Below, piece after piece: positions 21,132 to 29,869 of a stretch of 64,000 nt of DNA. Positions within the stretch are counted from its first letter, which is position 1. Each line of letters starts with the position of its first letter. A program made the position numbers and the translations under genes. The notes beneath the pieces were generated by a model. The model did not search any database, had not been told where the DNA came from, and worked only from the letters and a program-made list of their open reading frames with translations. This stretch comes from an uncultured cyanobacterium (GTDB lineage Bacteria; Cyanobacteriota; Cyanobacteriia; Pseudanabaenales; Pseudanabaenaceae), in the NCBI GenBank assembly GCA_963703315.1, contig OY969811.1, positions 1,632,001 to 1,696,000 on the forward strand. The letters run 5' to 3'.

Positions 21132-22316
21132 TTACGATCGCGTGAGACTGACTGTTTCTGGATCGTATTGAAATTGGTTAAGCGTTCCTTCTTTAATTTT
21201 TTCAACCACCGCTTCAATTATTTCTAGGGGAACAAGAAACCATTCCCTTGGTTGTACTGGTATGCCAAAGCGATCGGGTAGAGCTAATTCCAATCGAGCG
21301 CTGTCGAAAAACTTGTGCAGCAAAGCCTCAAGTTTTTTGGGATTAATATTTGCTAATTTGAAGGTGACGACAATTTCCACATCGGCGAGTAGGTAGGTGG
21401 GATCTTTTTTGGCGTTAGCAATTCGCTTTTTCACGTCGCCAGATGTCACGCCGATCTTGTGGATGACAGAACGATTTTCGATAATAAAGGGATGATCGCA
21501 TTGGCTTCTCAGCACATAAATGTAACCCGTTGGCAAGTCATCTGCGGCTTCAGTACTGAGAAAAAGTGGTCCCAGATCGGGAGTGGTGATGCGGCGACTG
21601 GTTTTGTCTTTATTTAGAGCGCGTTGCAGCGATCGCAATAATAAATCACTCTCAGTACCATTGTCATAAACAACTCGTAAGCGAGAGTTAGGCAGACCAT
21701 AATCACTGGTAAACCATTCTCCCATTTCGGCAACGATGACTTTCTGCCCATCAAGGATAAACAGATCGTTGAGGTTAATGGTGGCATTGTCTTGATATTT
21801 GATGGTTTGCCGATCGCCTGTTTTTAACTGGTGCTGCACTTGATCAAAGATTGGCTTGAACTGCTCGAAGTCTTGGCAGGGATTACGTTGGGCGATTTCT
21901 TCGGCGGCTTTAATTTCTTGGCGCGATCGCACATAGGTAAGACGGGTAATATCTTGGGCTGAATCGGTTTCAACTTTAAGAGCAGCAAGTAGCTCTTCAT
22001 CTGAGATCTTTTCAGCAGTTAGCTCGACATCTTTATCAGCATCCAATAGACCGTGAGAGTCTAGCGGTTTCAGGATGGCACGACATTCTTCCGATTCCCG
22101 CAGGCGATCAAGCCTCACGGCATAGATCCGCTCGAAGATATCGCAGTCTTCCCTGTGCTGGGGCAGTCTGCCCTGTTCTTCCACAAATCGCTCGATTTCC
22201 TCAAAGCCTGCGACAATGCGTTCCTCTGTAGCCGACCGACCATTATTTTGGGGAGACTGAGCAAAGCCGTCAAGTTCTGACCTTAGTTCATCGAGATCTA
22301 TATCACTATTACTCAT
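21132..22316 (-). CDS. YeeC-like GIY-YIG/T5orf172-family nuclease
   Basis: GYIYVLRS...HKIGVT...LEALLHKFF...PREWF; start overlaps the helicase stop. Confidence 0.85.
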   Translation of the reverse strand: MSNSDIDLDELRSELDGFAQSPQNNGRSATEERIVAGFEEIERFVEEQGRLPQHREDCDIFERIYAVRLDRLRESEECRAILKPLDSHGLLDADKDVELTAEKISDEELLAALKVETDSAQDITRLTYVRSRQEIKAAEEIAQRNPCQDFEQFKPIFDQVQHQLKTGDRQTIKYQDNATINLNDLFILDGQKVIVAEMGEWFTSDYGLPNSRLRVVYDNGTESDLLLRSLQRALNKDKTSRRITTPDLGPLFLSTEAADDLPTGYIYVLRSQCDHPFIIENRSVIHKIGVTSGDVKKRIANAKKDPTYLLADVEIVVTFKLANINPKKLEALLHKFFDSARLELALPDRFGIPVQPREWFLVPLEIIEAVVEKIKEGTLNQFQYDPETVSLTRS

Positions 22317-24447
22317 AACGTCCTTCATCCTTAAAGCGAACAAATGCGGCAGCACCTTCAGCCATACGCTTTTCCCAAGCATCGGGTGAATTAGCCGATG
22401 GTAGCCTTCCTCTTTCCTTTTTGAATTTGAAAGCTCGTACAGCAAGTTCTTTGGCTTCTTCGGGAGTCAGACTCGTGCGCTTGGCGGCAATTACTTCAGC
22501 GATCTGTTTGAGTCGTTCTTCGGTCATCGACTTGGCGAGGATGGCGTAGGCTTCGCCGAAGGGATTGATGCGATCGATTAAATCAATATCTAGTTCAGTG
22601 ACGGAGAAGGCGAACTGACGCACACCGTCAATCAAAGCTGTGTTTGGAGATGGCTCTTGATCTGGTTGATCTAATTGACGCTCTGATTGATCGAGAGAAT
22701 CGGTGGATTCAGGGAAAGCGATCGCACTGGGATTAAGCGTGTAGCCGTTACCTAACTCATTTAGGGATTTCTTGGCTTGTTGAATGACGTTTAGAGCGGC
22801 GATCGCGTGTTGACGCACTGCTTCTTGATCCTGTTCTTCGAGGATGGGAAACTTCTCTTTGACGATTTTGCCCATGCGGACTTGGGTTAATTCTTCGGGA
22901 ACCAACTCCTCATCGAATAGACCACGCTCGATTGCCTGTTTATCTTGGACAAAGGCTGTCACCAGTTCTGTTAAATCTTCGCGACAAATCCGTTTTGCTT
23001 CTTTACTTTTGGGTTCTGCTAGTCCCTTAATTTCTAATTGAATCTGACCCGTCTCTGGATTAATCCCCACATTACATTTATTGGGATCGTAGCCCTCTGC
23101 ACCATAGTCATAGCCTTCTGTCGGTTGATTGTCAGGGCGTTTGGGTTTGAACTCGAAGCGCGGCGCAAGAACTTGTTCCATTAATAGACTGGCGGCGATC
23201 GCTTTCAAGGTGTCATTTACGGCTTCGGTGACGGCTTCTTCACTGGCATCGGGTTCGGCGATGAGATTGGTGAAACGGGCGCGATATTTATTGGGTGCGT
23301 CACGAGTGGCGCGTCCGATGATCTGGATAATTTCGGTGAGGCTGGAGCGATAGCCAATGGTGAGAGCGTGTTCGCACCAAATCCAATCGAAGCCTTCCTT
23401 TGCCATGCCGAGGGCGATGATGATATCCACATGAGCGCGGTTATGTTTTTGGGTGGGATCTTTGAGCGCCGATGTCACTTTGTCCCGTTTAGCGGGATCA
23501 TCATCGACTAAATCCGCAATTTTTAAGATTGTCCCATCGGCAGTTTTGACTAGTTGAAAGCCTGTCTCTGGATCGGCTCCTTGCCATTCTCCTAATTCTT
23601 CAATAATATGTTCCACTTCGCGAATTTTGTCCTTAGTGCTTTCGCGAGAGTTGACATTGGGAATATGCAGAATCGTTTTCTCTTTGGGATTGAGAACCTG
23701 CATAATTTCATCGGCATAGCTACCCGCATAAAAGTAATAGCCTATGTCCAGTTGCTTGAGATATTGGTAGCCGTTGAGTTGTTCGTAATAGGTGTATTTA
23801 ACGGGTTCAAATTTGGCTTCGTCTTCGGGGTGCAGTACGGCGATCGCATCACCACGAAAGTAAGAGCCAGTCATGGCGACAATGTGGGTTTTGTCCCTTG
23901 CCATCAGTTGACCGACATATTCACCTAGTTTGTTATTGGGATTTGCGGAAACATGGTGAAATTCATCAATGGCGATCAAGCGCTGATCAAATGCCTCAAT
24001 GCCAAATTTATCAACGGCAAAGCGGAAGGTGGCATGGGTACAGATCAAAATCTTGACTGCACTATCGAGAAATTTCTGCACCGATTCGACTTTGCCGCCA
24101 TCGTTGCCAGCCGCATCGCAAAGGTTCCATTTGGGTTCTACTTGCCAATCTGCCCAAAAGCCATACTGAGTAAGTGTCTCGTTGTGAAAACTAGCACCAA
24201 TGGATTTTTCAGGAACGACGACGATCGCCTGTTTGAGTCCCTGATTTTCGAGTTTGTCGAGGGCGATAAACATCAGGGCGCGACTTTTGCCAGAGGCGGG
24301 GGGAGATTTGATTAATAAATATTGTTCGCCGCGTTTTTGGTAAGCGCGTTCTTGCATGGGGCGCATACCGAGGGCGTTGGGTTGGGTGGATGTGCCGTTG
24401 TGGGCGTAGGTGACGGAGACGGAGGGGATGGCTTTGGGTTTACTCAT
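22309..24447 (-). CDS. YeeB-like SF2 (DEAD/DEAH) helicase
   Basis: PPASGKS, IDEFHH, MTGS and QIIGRATR motifs. Confidence 0.88.
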   Translation of the reverse strand: MSKPKAIPSVSVTYAHNGTSTQPNALGMRPMQERAYQKRGEQYLLIKSPPASGKSRALMFIALDKLENQGLKQAIVVVPEKSIGASFHNETLTQYGFWADWQVEPKWNLCDAAGNDGGKVESVQKFLDSAVKILICTHATFRFAVDKFGIEAFDQRLIAIDEFHHVSANPNNKLGEYVGQLMARDKTHIVAMTGSYFRGDAIAVLHPEDEAKFEPVKYTYYEQLNGYQYLKQLDIGYYFYAGSYADEIMQVLNPKEKTILHIPNVNSRESTKDKIREVEHIIEELGEWQGADPETGFQLVKTADGTILKIADLVDDDPAKRDKVTSALKDPTQKHNRAHVDIIIALGMAKEGFDWIWCEHALTIGYRSSLTEIIQIIGRATRDAPNKYRARFTNLIAEPDASEEAVTEAVNDTLKAIAASLLMEQVLAPRFEFKPKRPDNQPTEGYDYGAEGYDPNKCNVGINPETGQIQLEIKGLAEPKSKEAKRICREDLTELVTAFVQDKQAIERGLFDEELVPEELTQVRMGKIVKEKFPILEEQDQEAVRQHAIAALNVIQQAKKSLNELGNGYTLNPSAIAFPESTDSLDQSERQLDQPDQEPSPNTALIDGVRQFAFSVTELDIDLIDRINPFGEAYAILAKSMTEERLKQIAEVIAAKRTSLTPEEAKELAVRAFKFKKERGRLPSANSPDAWEKRMAEGAAAFVRFKDEGRYE

Positions 24448-24459
24448 GGATATTTTTGA

Positions 24460-24867
24460 CTAGATCTGGTTGAGGATTTCTGTTGGGGAGTAAACAGGGA
24501 GGCTGCTACCGATGAAGTCTTTACGATCGCGGATTACGATCGCATCAAGCTGGGCAATAGTAGCACAGGCAAGTTGAATACTGTCTTCAAAGTCTTTCAG
24601 TCCAAGAGTAAGAGCCGTTGTAACAGTTTGGTGATCGACGGCACAAAATTGGAGTCCTATCAAGAGTTGATTAATGGCGGCAATAGCAACTTCACGACCT
24701 TCAGTTTTACGAATGATGTAGAAAATATTGGTGATGGTGGTTGCCGCAATATACCCTGCCAAATTACCTCTTTCAATTTGTTCAAAGAGGGCAATCGCAC
24801 TTGTGGCAAATGGTTCTCTTTCTAGGAGTAGATCGAGAACAACGTTGGTATCGATGAGAATTTTCAT
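24460..24867 (-). CDS. PIN-domain toxin
   Basis: ILIDTNVVLD...DFEDSIQLACA...RDRKDF. Confidence 0.88.
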   Translation of the reverse strand: MKILIDTNVVLDLLLEREPFATSAIALFEQIERGNLAGYIAATTITNIFYIIRKTEGREVAIAAINQLLIGLQFCAVDHQTVTTALTLGLKDFEDSIQLACATIAQLDAIVIRDRKDFIGSSLPVYSPTEILNQI

Positions 24868-24875
24868 AGACAGGC

Positions 24876-25118
24876 TTACAGGTATTTTTGGGTGAGATAG
24901 TCTGTATATTCGGATTGCAGATCTTGATCGCTAGGTGTTGAGTCAGCACGTTTGGCAATACCAAGAAGTCCAGTGAGTGTACCAAGGGGAATCACTTGGG
25001 ATGGATTGTGCTGTTTTTGGTGGAGAGACTCAGCGAAGTAAAAAATTTGGTTGATTTGGTCTTCTGGAAGGGTTTGGATAAGTTGATAGAGCTTTTCAGT
25101 AGTTGTCATGATCTTCAT
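24876..25118 (-). CDS. Putative antitoxin (DUF2281-like)
   Basis: Small ORF directly upstream of the PIN gene; LIQTLPEDQINQIFYFAE...YLTQKY. Confidence 0.7.
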   Translation of the reverse strand: MKIMTTTEKLYQLIQTLPEDQINQIFYFAESLHQKQHNPSQVIPLGTLTGLLGIAKRADSTPSDQDLQSEYTDYLTQKYL

Positions 25119-25145
25119 GGGGTAGGGATGTTTTATATTGACTAA

Positions 25146-25988
25146 TTAATTATCCAAAATATCGGGATTTTTAATAGATTTTTTCTCGTCTGAGGCAAGC
25201 CGCCGCTCAACTTTTTTGACATCTTCAGCAGGGGGCAAAGATTCTGGACGAATCCCCCTTTCTAGTAATGTCTTGCGAACTGCTTGATTATTTGTGATGT
25301 GTTCGCTAGAAATTTCTGGCTCTGTCGTCATTTGGTTTTGCTGTGCATTAAAGATCGTAATTTCGGCAGCAAAATCTTTAGCTTTGAGGATAATTGTGGG
25401 TGCAAAGTCTGCAAGAGGTTTGCTATCAGGTACTTTCCACTGAGCTTTCATGGCTTGTGTCGATTTTCCAAATAGGGCGGTGTCTCCTTTACTGCGAATT
25501 GAGGCAAAATTGCGATCGCTACCTGTTTGTTCGTAAATGACTCTCGAAAGTTCTTTTTCGGTTTCTGAAAGTTTTTTTCTAGCAGAAACTCGCTCAACTT
25601 CTAGCAAGCGTTGCTCAATTAACTCGGCTTTTCTGGTTTGAACTGCAAAATATGTCTGAGCAAAGGCAATTTCTTGTTTGCGCGGATCGCCATTTTGGGC
25701 AATCAGGTAACAGGCATAGCGGGTAAGCATGATGTCATCGACCTCTCTTTGACTGCCAGAGCCAAGATCGACCATTTTCCCGACGTTAGCAAAATGGTCA
25801 GCCACGTCATGATCTGAAACTTCGCAAGCCGTTTTTGCTTTGGAAACAACATTTAAAAAGTTATCCCATTTTGTATAGCCTAAAAGATGTTGGAGGTCAC
25901 GGGCAAGCCAATATTCGATGCCATTTTCAGTCTGTTGAGCGTGGGCTTCAAAGTTGTCGGTTAGAGAGTTGATCGTGTCTTTTTGCAT
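25146..25988 (-). CDS. dinD: DNA-damage-inducible protein D (Bro-N-like)
   Basis: EYWLARDLQHLLGY, LTRYACYLIAQNGDPRK, PESLPPAEDVKKVERRL. Confidence 0.85.
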   Translation of the reverse strand: MQKDTINSLTDNFEAHAQQTENGIEYWLARDLQHLLGYTKWDNFLNVVSKAKTACEVSDHDVADHFANVGKMVDLGSGSQREVDDIMLTRYACYLIAQNGDPRKQEIAFAQTYFAVQTRKAELIEQRLLEVERVSARKKLSETEKELSRVIYEQTGSDRNFASIRSKGDTALFGKSTQAMKAQWKVPDSKPLADFAPTIILKAKDFAAEITIFNAQQNQMTTEPEISSEHITNNQAVRKTLLERGIRPESLPPAEDVKKVERRLASDEKKSIKNPDILDN

Positions 25989-26275: not shown

Positions 26276-26374
26276 CCCTCACCCCTAGCCCCTCTCCCAA
26301 AAGGGGAGAGGGGAACAAGAAATTAGTCTTGCTCCCCCTCTCCCTTAATGGGAGAGGGGGCTGGGGGGTGAGGG
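26276..26374. repeat. 99-bp CCCTCACCCC...GGGGTGAGGG palindromic element, intergenic copy
   Basis: Same length and ends as the three copies inside the methyltransferase; opposite orientation. Confidence 0.9.
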
Positions 26375-26380
26375 CGATAT

Positions 26381-29300
26381 TTATGACTTGGGTTTTCGTT
26401 TGCTAGAAGGTTTCCCTGTCTCTTGTTTACTGGTCATTTTGCTGTACATCTCAAACAACTTCTCTAATCGCTCGGTGTCATTTTTAAACCGCCGCCCGAT
26501 GTAAATCCGTTCAATTATTTCGTCATTTCTCTCGTGGGCTTGTCTGACTAATGGGAATTCGCTGTCCATTCTGTCGCGATCGTACATATCGGCAATGGTG
26601 GCAGGAAAGTAATGCTCTCTGGCTAACAATATGTCTTCGGCGCAACGGGTGAGGTCGGTTTTGTTTTGTTCGGTGAGGGTGGGGACGGGGAAGGTGTTCC
26701 AGCCGAGGGTGTTGGAGTAGCGAAAGCTGGTTCCCATTCTTCCACAGACGGTGGCGATCCAGACTAAATGTAATCGTGAGGCGATCAGTGCCATGTTCCA
26801 AAGTGGATCATCGTAAAGAGCAAAAGCAAGATTGCTAACAATAGTTCCTGCTGGACAATAGCCTACAGGCAGATATTCACGACTCTCCGATGAAACACTT
26901 GGTACAATTAGTAATGTTTCAGTTCCAGTTTGACGGACTTCATCAAATCGATGTGGATATTTTGCTCCTTCACGAGTTGCGAGCTTTGAACTAGATAAGC
27001 GCATCATACGAACAGCTTCGATACGTTTATTAATTGCTGGAATCTCATTTGCTTTTGTAGCAGCTTCGTCAGAAATCCATAAACAAAATCTCTGTAAACC
27101 TCTTATAAATTCGACAGATCCCAGAAAAGAACGAACAAGAAGTAACTTTTGATTCATGGAAAGGTTGATTCCTTTTAATTCTTCTGATGATAAAAGTAGA
27201 TTTCCACCATCAACAGGCTTACTGCCAAAACTCATTTCAGAGATATCACTTAATGGCTTTGCTGATTTTTCAACGATTACATTTACTCCACTTACCAAAT
27301 AAGCATTAATATTTATCGCTTCCTTAGCTATTGTTTGTCCTTTATCTTCAACAGAAAATAAACATTTTGCCCTATCCCATTGCTGAGAAATTCCCACCAT
27401 CACCACTATCACCCCAGCGTTATGAGTTGCTAGATTTGCCCATTTGAAAGAAGTATGAGCAAAAGCAATTTCATGACCAGTTGCAAAAATTAGTGACCAG
27501 AGAATTGATACTTGTTGCCCCTGACAAATAGAATTAGTCGAAACAAACGCCGCCGCCGATTGGGTTTGGGTTCCATAATCAGCAGCCTTCATAAACCAAC
27601 CCGCCACATAATCTAGCGACTTCCATAACTTAGTACGTCCATCAAAAATTTGTTTTAAATCATCCTTCTGTTCCTTCGATTGCCAAGTAGAACCCAAATA
27701 AGGCGGATTTCCACAAATATAAGTTTCTCCTCCCTCATTTTTAAAATCAATCTCAGCCTCATCCCGCGTCTCTTGCCACAAATCCAAATCCTCACGCTGC
27801 ACAGTTACACCCTTACCCGTTGGCGGACACAAACTCAACCAATCCAACCGCAACGCATTCCCACAAGTAATCCAATTATCACTCTTTAACGGCAAAAACT
27901 CCGCCAGCGCCAACATTTGCCCCCGATACAACACATCACACTGATACTCCGCAATAATCAACGCCAACCGCGCCACCTCCACCGCAAAATGCCGAATTTC
28001 AATCCCCCGAAAATTGGTTAACGGAATATCTGACTTGCGATCGCCCTCACCCCGCCGCCGATTGATTTCCGCCTCAAGCGATCGCATCTCCTTATAAGCA
28101 ATCACCAAAAAATTCCCCGACCCACAAGCAGGATCAAACACCCGAATCTTCGCCATCCGTAGCCGCAAATTCAACAACTTCCGCCCATTGTCTCCCGCCG
28201 CATCTAACTGAGCGCGAAGATCATCCAAAAACAACGGATTCAGCACCTTCAAGATATTCGGCACACTCGTATAGTGCATCCCCAACGTGCCGCGCTCCTC
28301 ATCATCAGCGATCGCCTGAATCATCGACCCAAAAATGTCAGGATTAATCCGCTTCCAGTCCAAATTGCCAATATGCAACAAATACGATCGCGCAATCTTA
28401 CTAAAACGGGGTATACCCTCACCCCCAGCCCCTCTCCCAGAACGGGAGAGGGGAGTAAGAGATTTTTCTTGTCCCCCTTCTCCCTCCTTGGGAGAAGGGG
28501 CTAGGGGATGAGGGCGATTTACAAACTTAAGACCCTCACCCCCAGCCCCTCTCCCAGTAGGGGAGAGGGGAGTAAGAGGAGATTCTTGTCCCCCTTCTCC
28601 CTCCTTGGGAGAAGGGGTTAGGGGATGAGGGTTAAACCCCTGCCGTACAAGAGTTAATGCTTGATCTAAATTTGTCTCGACTAATTCACTAGATACACGA
28701 ACCACCCTCAAGCCCAAGGATTCAAGTAGCTCTTGTCGTTGACGATCTGCTGCTTGCTGTGAGTCATGCACACCGCCATCAACTTCAACAATTAGTCGTT
28801 CTGCCCCACAGAAAAAATCAACAATGAACGCTCCGATTGACTGTTGTCGCCTGAATTTGCGTCCTTCTAGCTTGCGTCCGCGCAGAGCTTGCCAAAGAAT
28901 ATTTTCACTGGGAGTAGGTTCTTTGCGAAATTGACGAGCCACCTCAGTCATTTTTTGCTTAAGTTCAGGAGGAATTGACCAGTACTCGCCTGAATCAATA
29001 CCCTCACCCCCAGCCCCTCGCCCAAAGGGGGAGAGGGGAGTAAGAGATTTTTCTTGTTCCCTCTCTCCCTTCTTGGGAGAGGGGGCTAGGGGGTGAGGGC
29101 GATCCACAGGATGAGAGCTAAACAACCCTCCATTCACATAAGGAAAAACATTTGCCCAATTGCGAATCCCTAACGCCTCGCGCTCCTGTAATGGTGTCGC
29201 CATCGCCCGAAACAACTCCGCCAAAATCTCATGGGTATTTTCACCATCACTCATCTGCGCGATCGCCTGTGTAAACAACCCATCGCCACTAAAAATATTC

Positions 29301-29869
29301 GTATCTTCCGCAAAAAAACAGAAAATCAACCGCGCCATAAAATGATTAAAATCTTCACGGCGATCGCCCTGATCCCAATCAGGATTATCCTTCAACAACT
29401 CCACATAAAGCCGATTTAGCCGCCCCGTCGCCTTAATATCAAAGGCATTTTCCCGAATTTGCTTAACCGTCGTAATCCCTGCCAACGGCAAGAAAAAGCC
29501 AAAATGATCCGCAAATTTTGGGTATGCACAGGCGATCGTCTCCCCATCCACCAGATTTTCTGCCTCAAAGCTCTCGCCATCCGTCGCCAGAATAAACTTT
29601 GCCTTGTGCTTAGTCGTGGCTGAACTCTCCCGCAAAGCCGTCAAAGTTGCCGATACATCCCCCTCAGCGCAAACCTTCAGATGAATATTATTCCGTTGCA
29701 GCACTCCACCCACATCAGACTGATTCGAGCTACCCTGCTCACTCCTGAGCCGCTTGAGCGTAGTCGCCTTATTGCCAAAAGCCTCTAAAAACGCAAAAGG
29801 AAACTCCGATCCATCAAAAGGTGCTTCCGCCAACCGAGAAACCGCTTCTTCAATTTCGACTGCATTCAT
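26381..29869 (-). CDS. YeeA/MmeI-like N6-adenine DNA methyltransferase with in-frame DUF559 insertion
   Basis: MNAVEIEEAVS start, FDPACGSGNFL (motif I), GNPPY (motif IV), C-terminal TRD region, KNDTERLEKLFEMY end. Confidence 0.9.
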   Translation of the reverse strand: MNAVEIEEAVSRLAEAPFDGSEFPFAFLEAFGNKATTLKRLRSEQGSSNQSDVGGVLQRNNIHLKVCAEGDVSATLTALRESSATTKHKAKFILATDGESFEAENLVDGETIACAYPKFADHFGFFLPLAGITTVKQIRENAFDIKATGRLNRLYVELLKDNPDWDQGDRREDFNHFMARLIFCFFAEDTNIFSGDGLFTQAIAQMSDGENTHEILAELFRAMATPLQEREALGIRNWANVFPYVNGGLFSSHPVDRPHPLAPSPKKGEREQEKSLTPLSPFGRGAGGEGIDSGEYWSIPPELKQKMTEVARQFRKEPTPSENILWQALRGRKLEGRKFRRQQSIGAFIVDFFCGAERLIVEVDGGVHDSQQAADRQRQELLESLGLRVVRVSSELVETNLDQALTLVRQGFNPHPLTPSPKEGEGGQESPLTPLSPTGRGAGGEGLKFVNRPHPLAPSPKEGEGGQEKSLTPLSRSGRGAGGEGIPRFSKIARSYLLHIGNLDWKRINPDIFGSMIQAIADDEERGTLGMHYTSVPNILKVLNPLFLDDLRAQLDAAGDNGRKLLNLRLRMAKIRVFDPACGSGNFLVIAYKEMRSLEAEINRRRGEGDRKSDIPLTNFRGIEIRHFAVEVARLALIIAEYQCDVLYRGQMLALAEFLPLKSDNWITCGNALRLDWLSLCPPTGKGVTVQREDLDLWQETRDEAEIDFKNEGGETYICGNPPYLGSTWQSKEQKDDLKQIFDGRTKLWKSLDYVAGWFMKAADYGTQTQSAAAFVSTNSICQGQQVSILWSLIFATGHEIAFAHTSFKWANLATHNAGVIVVMVGISQQWDRAKCLFSVEDKGQTIAKEAININAYLVSGVNVIVEKSAKPLSDISEMSFGSKPVDGGNLLLSSEELKGINLSMNQKLLLVRSFLGSVEFIRGLQRFCLWISDEAATKANEIPAINKRIEAVRMMRLSSSKLATREGAKYPHRFDEVRQTGTETLLIVPSVSSESREYLPVGYCPAGTIVSNLAFALYDDPLWNMALIASRLHLVWIATVCGRMGTSFRYSNTLGWNTFPVPTLTEQNKTDLTRCAEDILLAREHYFPATIADMYDRDRMDSEFPLVRQAHERNDEIIERIYIGRRFKNDTERLEKLFEMYSKMTSKQETGKPSSKRKPKS
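28416..29099 (-). mobile_element. In-frame repeat-DUF559-repeat-repeat insertion
   Basis: 99-bp repeats at 29001-29099, 28533-28631 and 28416-28514 flank ARQFRKEPTPSENILWQALR...FRRQ...IVDF...EVDGGVH (DUF559/Vsr-like). Confidence 0.8.

Follow-up and report, generated by a model that had tools for sequence, protein, structure and literature searches.

The window, a stretch of 64,000 nucleotides, carries on its minus strand (26381..29869) a gene for a YeeA/DnmA-type (MmeI-like) N6-adenine methyltransferase, read as one open frame of 1162 residues in which Pfam places MmeI_N, MmeI_hel (aa 173-250), DUF559 (aa 306-408), MmeI_Mtase (aa 556-838), TRD and C domains. The DPACGSG and NPPY motifs of the methyltransferase are intact, and no E-x-K nuclease motif was seen in the N-terminal domain. 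Downstream, and outside the insertion described below, lie intact genes for a YeeB-like helicase (22309..24447, minus strand; DEAD and ResIII domains) and a YeeC-like T5orf172 protein (21132..22445, minus strand). In the accessible text of PMC2731913, which defines the YeeA group, and of PMC9973331, YeeA/DnmA-YeeB-YeeC loci consist of an MmeI-like methyltransferase that has no PD-ExK and, after it, genes for a helicase and a T5orf172 protein; we assign the host to this type because both genes follow it and its N-terminal domain lacks the E-x-K motif. The interval from yeeA to yeeB (24460-25988) holds a dinD-like gene, a PIN-domain gene and a small ORF, and the gene content past the yeeA stop varies widely among relatives.

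The preliminary description recognised within this gene three 99-bp repeats around an in-frame DUF559 domain, and the single open frame confirms that arrangement. It gave the in-frame block as 684 bp; the frame is indeed kept, but the extent, set against empty alleles, is 28415..29119 (minus strand; 705 nt, 235 residues, aa 251-485) and takes in a worn left arm. Read in the direction of the gene, the insert consists of the remnant of this extra arm (SSHPVDR, 29100..29119), repeat R1 (29001..29099), a YcjD-like, Vsr-fold DUF559 nuclease module (28632..29000; Pfam core 28646-28954), repeat R2 (28533..28631), an 18-nt spacer (28515..28532) that makes the tandem unit 117 nt, and repeat R3 (28416..28514), all on the minus strand, giving one repeat before the nuclease and two after it. 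R1, R2 and R3 are each 99 nt and agree pairwise at 84-92 of 99 positions. The same worn stretch occurs in genomes G020 and G022, with which the left junction is shared, while most filled alleles begin S/G-PHP at this point. A near-identical strain (X1) is without one 117-nt unit; it is available as contigs only, and the difference may be assembly collapse. A fourth, intergenic copy (26276..26374, minus strand) begins 6 nt past the host stop. It had been taken as inverted and is instead direct, with 79-86 of 99 positions matching R1-R3 in the same orientation versus 56-57 of 99 in the opposite one.

Comparison with empty alleles shows that the insert takes the place of a 15-nt, 5-codon loop between the spacer and methyltransferase domains of the host. 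No target-site duplication was found by DNA comparison with these alleles, and no transposase family matched within the insert; the two marks of an insertion sequence or MITE are thus missing, and a loop is replaced both here and at leuS. Searches for the marks of an intein or a self-splicing intron returned no Hint domain in the host protein and no match in Rfam.

For DUF559 domains we know of a structure but of no role. The embedded module scores 108 bits against Pfam PF04480 (cut-off 20.6, E 1e-29), falls short of the NCBIfam YcjD equivalog cut-off (76 vs 218) and retains the near-invariant residues E322, D351, E362, D364, G365, H368, D375 and R378. Mean identity among 32 filled alleles is 88% for DUF559 and 81% and 86% for the host parts. 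Across the 32 estimable of 45 pairs, many of them near saturation, dN/dS of the domain is 0.02-0.14 (about 0.05) with dS like that of the host, and on these codon comparisons the domain is under purifying selection. Whereas prediction from the single sequence gave a pLDDT of 34, a model based on an alignment of 100 sequences reached a mean pLDDT of 63 (pTM 0.33) and supports statements on domains and linkers only, not on packing. In this model DUF559 folds independently (block pLDDT 56-86) between low-confidence linkers (21-39), and it superimposes with an rmsd of 2.6 Å on PDB 3HRL, the only solved sequence relative (E 2e-17). The proposal that the repeats serve as Pro/Gly linkers is therefore upheld as far as the model goes, since they are predicted to be disordered around a separately folded domain. 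By analogy with its fold group, the module would be expected to be a nuclease; the accessible text of PMC2677866 and PMC3424549, which place DUF559/YcjD (3HRL) in one fold group with Vsr-like homing endonucleases, gives no activity for DUF559. Unlike those enzymes, the module here has no intron or intein around it and no NUMOD-type binding domain.

The repeats and their relation to BoxC

Each 99-mer is an inverted pair of BoxC/triplex-type units, each half being a pyrimidine-purine hairpin followed by a mirrored tail, an identity that the preliminary description had overlooked. BoxC repeats have been recognised since the 1990s, and we know of no mover or function for them. A hairpin with a mirrored third strand (G-G and A/T-A triads) can be drawn for all 8 units of the window, one arm having a single mismatch. 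In 226 distinct units taken from the neighbourhood of DUF559 genes, tail and purine arm mirror each other at 440 of 464 A positions, whereas 300 tail swaps gave 72% (maximum 76%), link length being optimised in real and swapped sets alike. The preliminary description had also proposed terminal inverted repeats with two internal hairpins. The strong folding stands: the 99-nt copies fold far better than shuffled sequences (z -5.1 to -8.5; 0 of 200 shuffles as good). The particular fold, two hairpins plus a terminal stem, is the minimum-energy form in 1 of the 5 strands folded, the other four giving a single long hairpin.

The window repeats share the hairpin and mirrored G-rich tail with the BoxC/PIT/TM(ECO) intrastrand triplex motif of Holder et al. 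(2015, PMC4666352), whose accessible text also describes inverted pairs in E. coli and abundance in cyanobacteria. They differ in having longer G runs, and because of this they miss the strict TM(ECO) consensus (three-G runs, 3-nt link), which matches 0 of 8 unit strands in the window and none in the genome. With the link relaxed to 3-7 nt it matches 5 of 8 strands and 34 in the genome. Judged by sequence, the window repeat is a variant of the BoxC/TM motif and not the E. coli element itself. That account, as far as its accessible text goes, demonstrates triplex formation for E. coli oligonucleotides only, not for duplex DNA or in vivo, reports that BoxC loci of E. coli are unstable, and describes neither a mobilising gene nor in-frame copies; the word ycjD is absent from it.

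The genome holds 80 BoxC-type elements, 54 intergenic and 26 in ORFs (one of the 26 probably spurious). Coding DNA is depleted of them, at 26 of 80 elements versus a genome that is 76% coding, and in-frame copies occur in polA, leuS, priA, mnmE, mfd, mutL, cobN, cobB and other genes. The solo unit in leuS also replaces a loop, and is present in 22 of the 29 genus members read and missing in 7. A length designed as a multiple of three, proposed as a sign of adaptation to coding sequence, was dropped as evidence: 99 nt is the modal length of the family (18 of 24 full copies), and most of these copies are intergenic. Many intergenic copies ride inside a MITE-like carrier, and another transposase may spread them by this route. 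This carrier is TA-flanked with terminal inverted repeats of about 12 nt, and its cargo is the 99-bp doublet or other palindromes (for example at G000:C1:1393440-1393580 and 732890-733040).

Alleles of the yeeA site and DUF559 genes elsewhere

From 8000 candidates scored we took the 120 best matches to the methyltransferase core, of which 11 did not cover the site. Among the remaining 109, the site is empty in 65, which have a plain loop of 5-9 residues as had been expected of homologues; it holds repeats only in 21, a relic of five residues from the right end of the repeat in 3, and the nuclease in 20. The alleles of close relatives include empty, solo-repeat, nested-repeat and filled ones. 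Inserts of 400-616 residues occur at this site in Limnospira (P0001, P0002, P0005) as long tandem runs of repeats with the frame maintained.

A tree of 116 host proteins, quickly made with the insert left out of the alignment and with 14 further filled proteins added, requires 17 changes of the filled state, at least 7 of them forced by starred branches, and the states are interleaved; the host of the window falls in a starred clade of 8 rows with 3 filled, 2 solo, 2 relic and 1 empty. On this tree gains are indistinguishable from losses, and yeeA-type genes recombine. At the DNA level, both junctions are common to the filled alleles, a pattern suggestive of a single old insertion that later spread, collapsed or did both. 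Because the filled alleles share their junctions and their synonymous divergence resembles that of the host, the yeeA insertion is old and was probably a single event, and repeated losses would suffice to produce the tree. The N-terminal part of yeeA passes via the repeat into unrelated sequence in G036 (L030/L252, C78) and G610 (L248), as if rearranged at the repeat.

The association of the repeats with DUF559, which the preliminary description had anticipated, is found well beyond this site. Of 170 distinct DUF559 domains collected from best-match loci, with matches covering fewer than 70 model positions dropped, 159 have full flanks; a unit lies within 200 nt of 135 of these and on both sides of 91, versus 3 of 108 (both sides 0) at a distance of 1 kb within these loci and 137 of 1590 (both sides 8) shuffled flanks. 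Neither outcome that the preliminary description had named as refuting, the domain being general among orthologs or the repeats being unassociated with DUF559 elsewhere, came about. A stricter motif detector had given 61 of 77, and the looser one behind the count of 135 still misses visible variants. Represented in it are Cyanobacteriia and another class of the same phylum, Chloroflexota, Bacillota, Deinococcus and three classes of Proteobacteria; the set contains strong DUF559 matches only and is rich in close kin, about half coming from one genus, and the Bacillota cases are few and weaker. Proteobacteria were sampled as E. coli plus 9 of 30 plasmid-collection matches, three of these being Deinococcus or other groups counted apart. 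Just two mid-protein DUF559 copies (L177, L179) are free of the repeat, both in an intein-like context as judged by eye from flanking motifs.

The 34 of 74 fused ORFs scanned for their hosts comprise MmeI-like, Eco57I-like, ISP, HsdR, DUF1156 and Mod enzymes and, outside restriction-modification, PriA, a GHMP kinase (IspE-like), an M14 peptidase and a MetH-like protein; in Cyanobacteriia the in-frame hosts are nearly all restriction-modification genes. Mobility of the unit, as first supposed, is supported by the nuclease clade of the window, which recurs in another host family: its members are 84-88% identical to copies in Mod-type methylases, while copies at the same site are 81-92% identical. 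A second cassette in the same genome (G000:C1:2472278-2475700; L001, L222) sits in an MmeI-like gene with an intact D-x9-E-x-K nuclease motif; its DUF559 belongs to another clade, its repeats are of another variant, and the gene has solo units at two further sites. The window cassette is optional at one host loop, with related cassettes in frame at other sites and in other genes. In another genome an ORF for a GHMP kinase (IspE-like; L122, G101:C3:93323-96640) carries two DUF559 domains of different branches, one N-terminal and one internal.

Within the genus, each nuclease clade has distinct repeat arms (tree of 97 columns, deep forks unresolved), and each clade is accompanied by a repeat variant of its own. 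This match alone is no proof of co-evolution, because adjacent sequences are inherited together.

In E. coli K-12 the sole DUF559 gene, ycjD, ends in a worn unit, and TMECO no. 9 lies 168 nt downstream. The accessible text of PMC4666352 counts 23 such repeats in this strain, which makes the relation between nuclease and repeat open to experiment there. In other E. coli lineages eefRABCD occupies the place of ycjD, between fabI and sapF (PMC12817139), an account whose accessible part makes no mention of BoxC units. Among titles and abstracts, most subscription papers lying beyond the search, we found no paper joining DUF559 or YcjD to BoxC.

Origin and movement of the cassette

We consider it fairly probable that the insert is a non-splicing selfish cassette, in which a DUF559 nuclease acts on its own cognate BoxC/triplex-type repeats. 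In such a cassette the repeats would be translated through as disordered Pro/Gly linkers, allowing the host domains to fold around the tethered nuclease without splicing, as the model predicts. The nuclease would recognise the repeat in its folded form, a hairpin with its mirrored third strand, and nick at or near it. Repair might then place repeat copies in neighbouring loops, through replacement and not through cut-and-paste, mostly near the nuclease gene. Recombination between repeats could expand arrays, collapse the cassette to a solo or refill a solo with the nuclease, and the 99-bp doublet would, by analogy, be the non-autonomous form, as a REPIN is to its RAYT. The nuclease is in this sense a likely partner, and possibly the mover, of BoxC-kind repeats. 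Speaking for this reading are the allelic series and its interleaving on the host tree, the proximity of units to DUF559 in many groups, the clade-specific repeat arms, the mirrored third strand, the equally close copies in Mod-type methylases, the low dN/dS and the worn unit at E. coli ycjD.

That the mobility of the repeats is driven by the nuclease would be consistent with several counts. Extra in-frame solos are found in 34 of 84 other DUF559-bearing proteins, some of the 34 perhaps being extensions of the flanking array, versus 16 of 1731 long ORFs in the genome of the window; the figure for filled YeeA proteins, only 1 of 36, tells the other way. Of 14 filled or derived alleles, 5 have a copy within 400 nt past the yeeA stop, about three of these being independent cases, versus 0 of 13 empty ones. 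Copies of the type-D repeat are commoner where the cognate clade is present (median 33.5 vs 5.5), and type-G repeats occur in 3 of 3 genomes with their clade and in 3 of 45 others.

The best surviving alternative, which we nevertheless hold to be unlikely, is that the partnership is passive: the repeats would move by other means (MITE carriage, replication slippage or repair at non-B DNA), and DUF559 would be an old captured cargo shuffled by recombination. The carrier around many intergenic doublets, the repeat-bounded yeeA rearrangements in G036 and G610 and the instability of BoxC in E. coli (PMC4666352, as far as accessible) all speak for it, as does the abundance of repeats where the cognate nuclease was not found, type D reaching 41-73 copies in four such genomes. 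Type B counts on both sides. Its 71 exact hairpins come from 14 of 48 genomes and are confined to one MmeI-like gene and its immediate surroundings, 68 of them within 2.5 kb of DUF559, which fits local seeding by the nuclease; as they occupy few sites, shared by descent, they represent about three events and not 71. The nuclease clade was assigned by tree in 10 of these genomes and by position in 3, the gene of the fourteenth being split between contigs. In the 13 genomes with the cognate nuclease no type-B spread beyond the host gene was found, so that this embedded nuclease has no visible action in trans, in keeping with a passive partnership. A passive partnership leaves unexplained, however, why one and the same nuclease family, intact, recurs in at least six phylum-level groups, why a matched repeat variant goes with each clade, and why the copies borne by inteins are free of the repeat.

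Improbable too, and ranked next, is a domesticated accessory domain, a fused nuclease that aids YeeABC or another restriction-modification enzyme by nicking or DNA binding and is kept by host selection. YeeA has no nuclease motif of its own, the dN/dS of the domain is usually lower than that of the N-terminal part of the host, and the restriction-modification character of the cyanobacterial hosts would fit such a role. Against this, the domain is missing from 89 of 109 homologues and has probably been lost repeatedly, and it occupies unrelated positions, in hosts with their own nuclease motif and also in PriA, IspE, a peptidase and MetH. Nor is Vsr-type T:G repair required after N6-methyladenine modification, which is the mark that these hosts make. 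The earlier suggestion that a nuclease had been grafted onto the methyltransferase may hold but is likewise not needed, because YeeB and YeeC are intact and a cassette is also found in the second MmeI-like host, which has a D-x9-E-x-K motif of its own.

Least probable of the three is classical homing, in which the nuclease would cut empty yeeA at a long target and be copied by double-strand-break repair, the repeats being mere linkers in place of intein splicing: common junctions, patchy distribution on the host tree, purifying selection, DUF559 in intein-like inserts, the existence of Vsr-like homing endonucleases (PMC2677866, accessible text) and a non-splicing precedent in phage methylases (PMC11855218, likewise) recommend it, but a nuclease just as close is found in a Mod-type gene, an unrelated host, the 120-residue module has no separate DNA-binding domain, stand-alone DUF559 copies retain repeats despite having no need of a linker, and nuclease divergence is not below host divergence, the two distances not being decoupled.

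In its working the cassette is comparable to a REPIN/RAYT pair and to Rickettsia palindromic elements, and it has a likeness to the ShiLan insert, but it belongs to none of these. With REPIN/RAYT (Bertels and Rainey 2011, PMC3116915, accessible text) it shares dispersed inverted doublets that cluster at one nuclease-type gene, here DUF559, in clade-matched variants, a likeness of working only; unlike that pair, the enzyme is a Vsr-fold PD-(D/E)XK protein rather than an HUH tyrosine transposase, and cassette and repeats lie in frame within coding sequence. Rickettsia palindromic elements, as the accessible text of PMC10969869 describes them, are likewise translated in frame in housekeeping genes; their sequence is unrelated, whereas here a nuclease-bearing form is present and is itself in frame. 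The ShiLan domain (PMC11855218, accessible text) is an endonuclease insert read through in a DNA methylase, patchy and without a splicing domain, but conceals an out-of-frame HNH, whereas the cassette has an in-frame Vsr-like nuclease, dispersed repeats as its bounds and many sites.

The locus presents a complete repeat-nuclease pair together with every allelic state, whether empty, solo, relic or filled. To the BoxC problem it adds a nuclease-bearing form inside a protein, an allelic series, a test of selection and a pattern of local seeding. It accounts for the annotation of methyltransferases as 'very-short-patch-repair endonuclease', and it points to a way in which selfish DNA could supply proteins with new loops and whole domains, no splicing being involved. 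More tentatively, and at rather less than even confidence, DUF559/YcjD and the BoxC triplex repeats may each supply one half of a so far undescribed class of mobile element that is pan-bacterial, with a structure-reading Vsr-fold nickase, neither transposase nor splicing, a tethered folded domain, and repeat peptides seeded into essential genes.

A link to a RAYT, an HUH Y1 transposase, had also been raised and was rejected, the single Y1_Tnp gene of the genome being flanked by other REPs. This one RAYT-like gene (G000:C1:348300-349800, L303) lies at a gene end where relatives have a stand-alone DUF559 (L083, L085), and the same REP family is found beside both.
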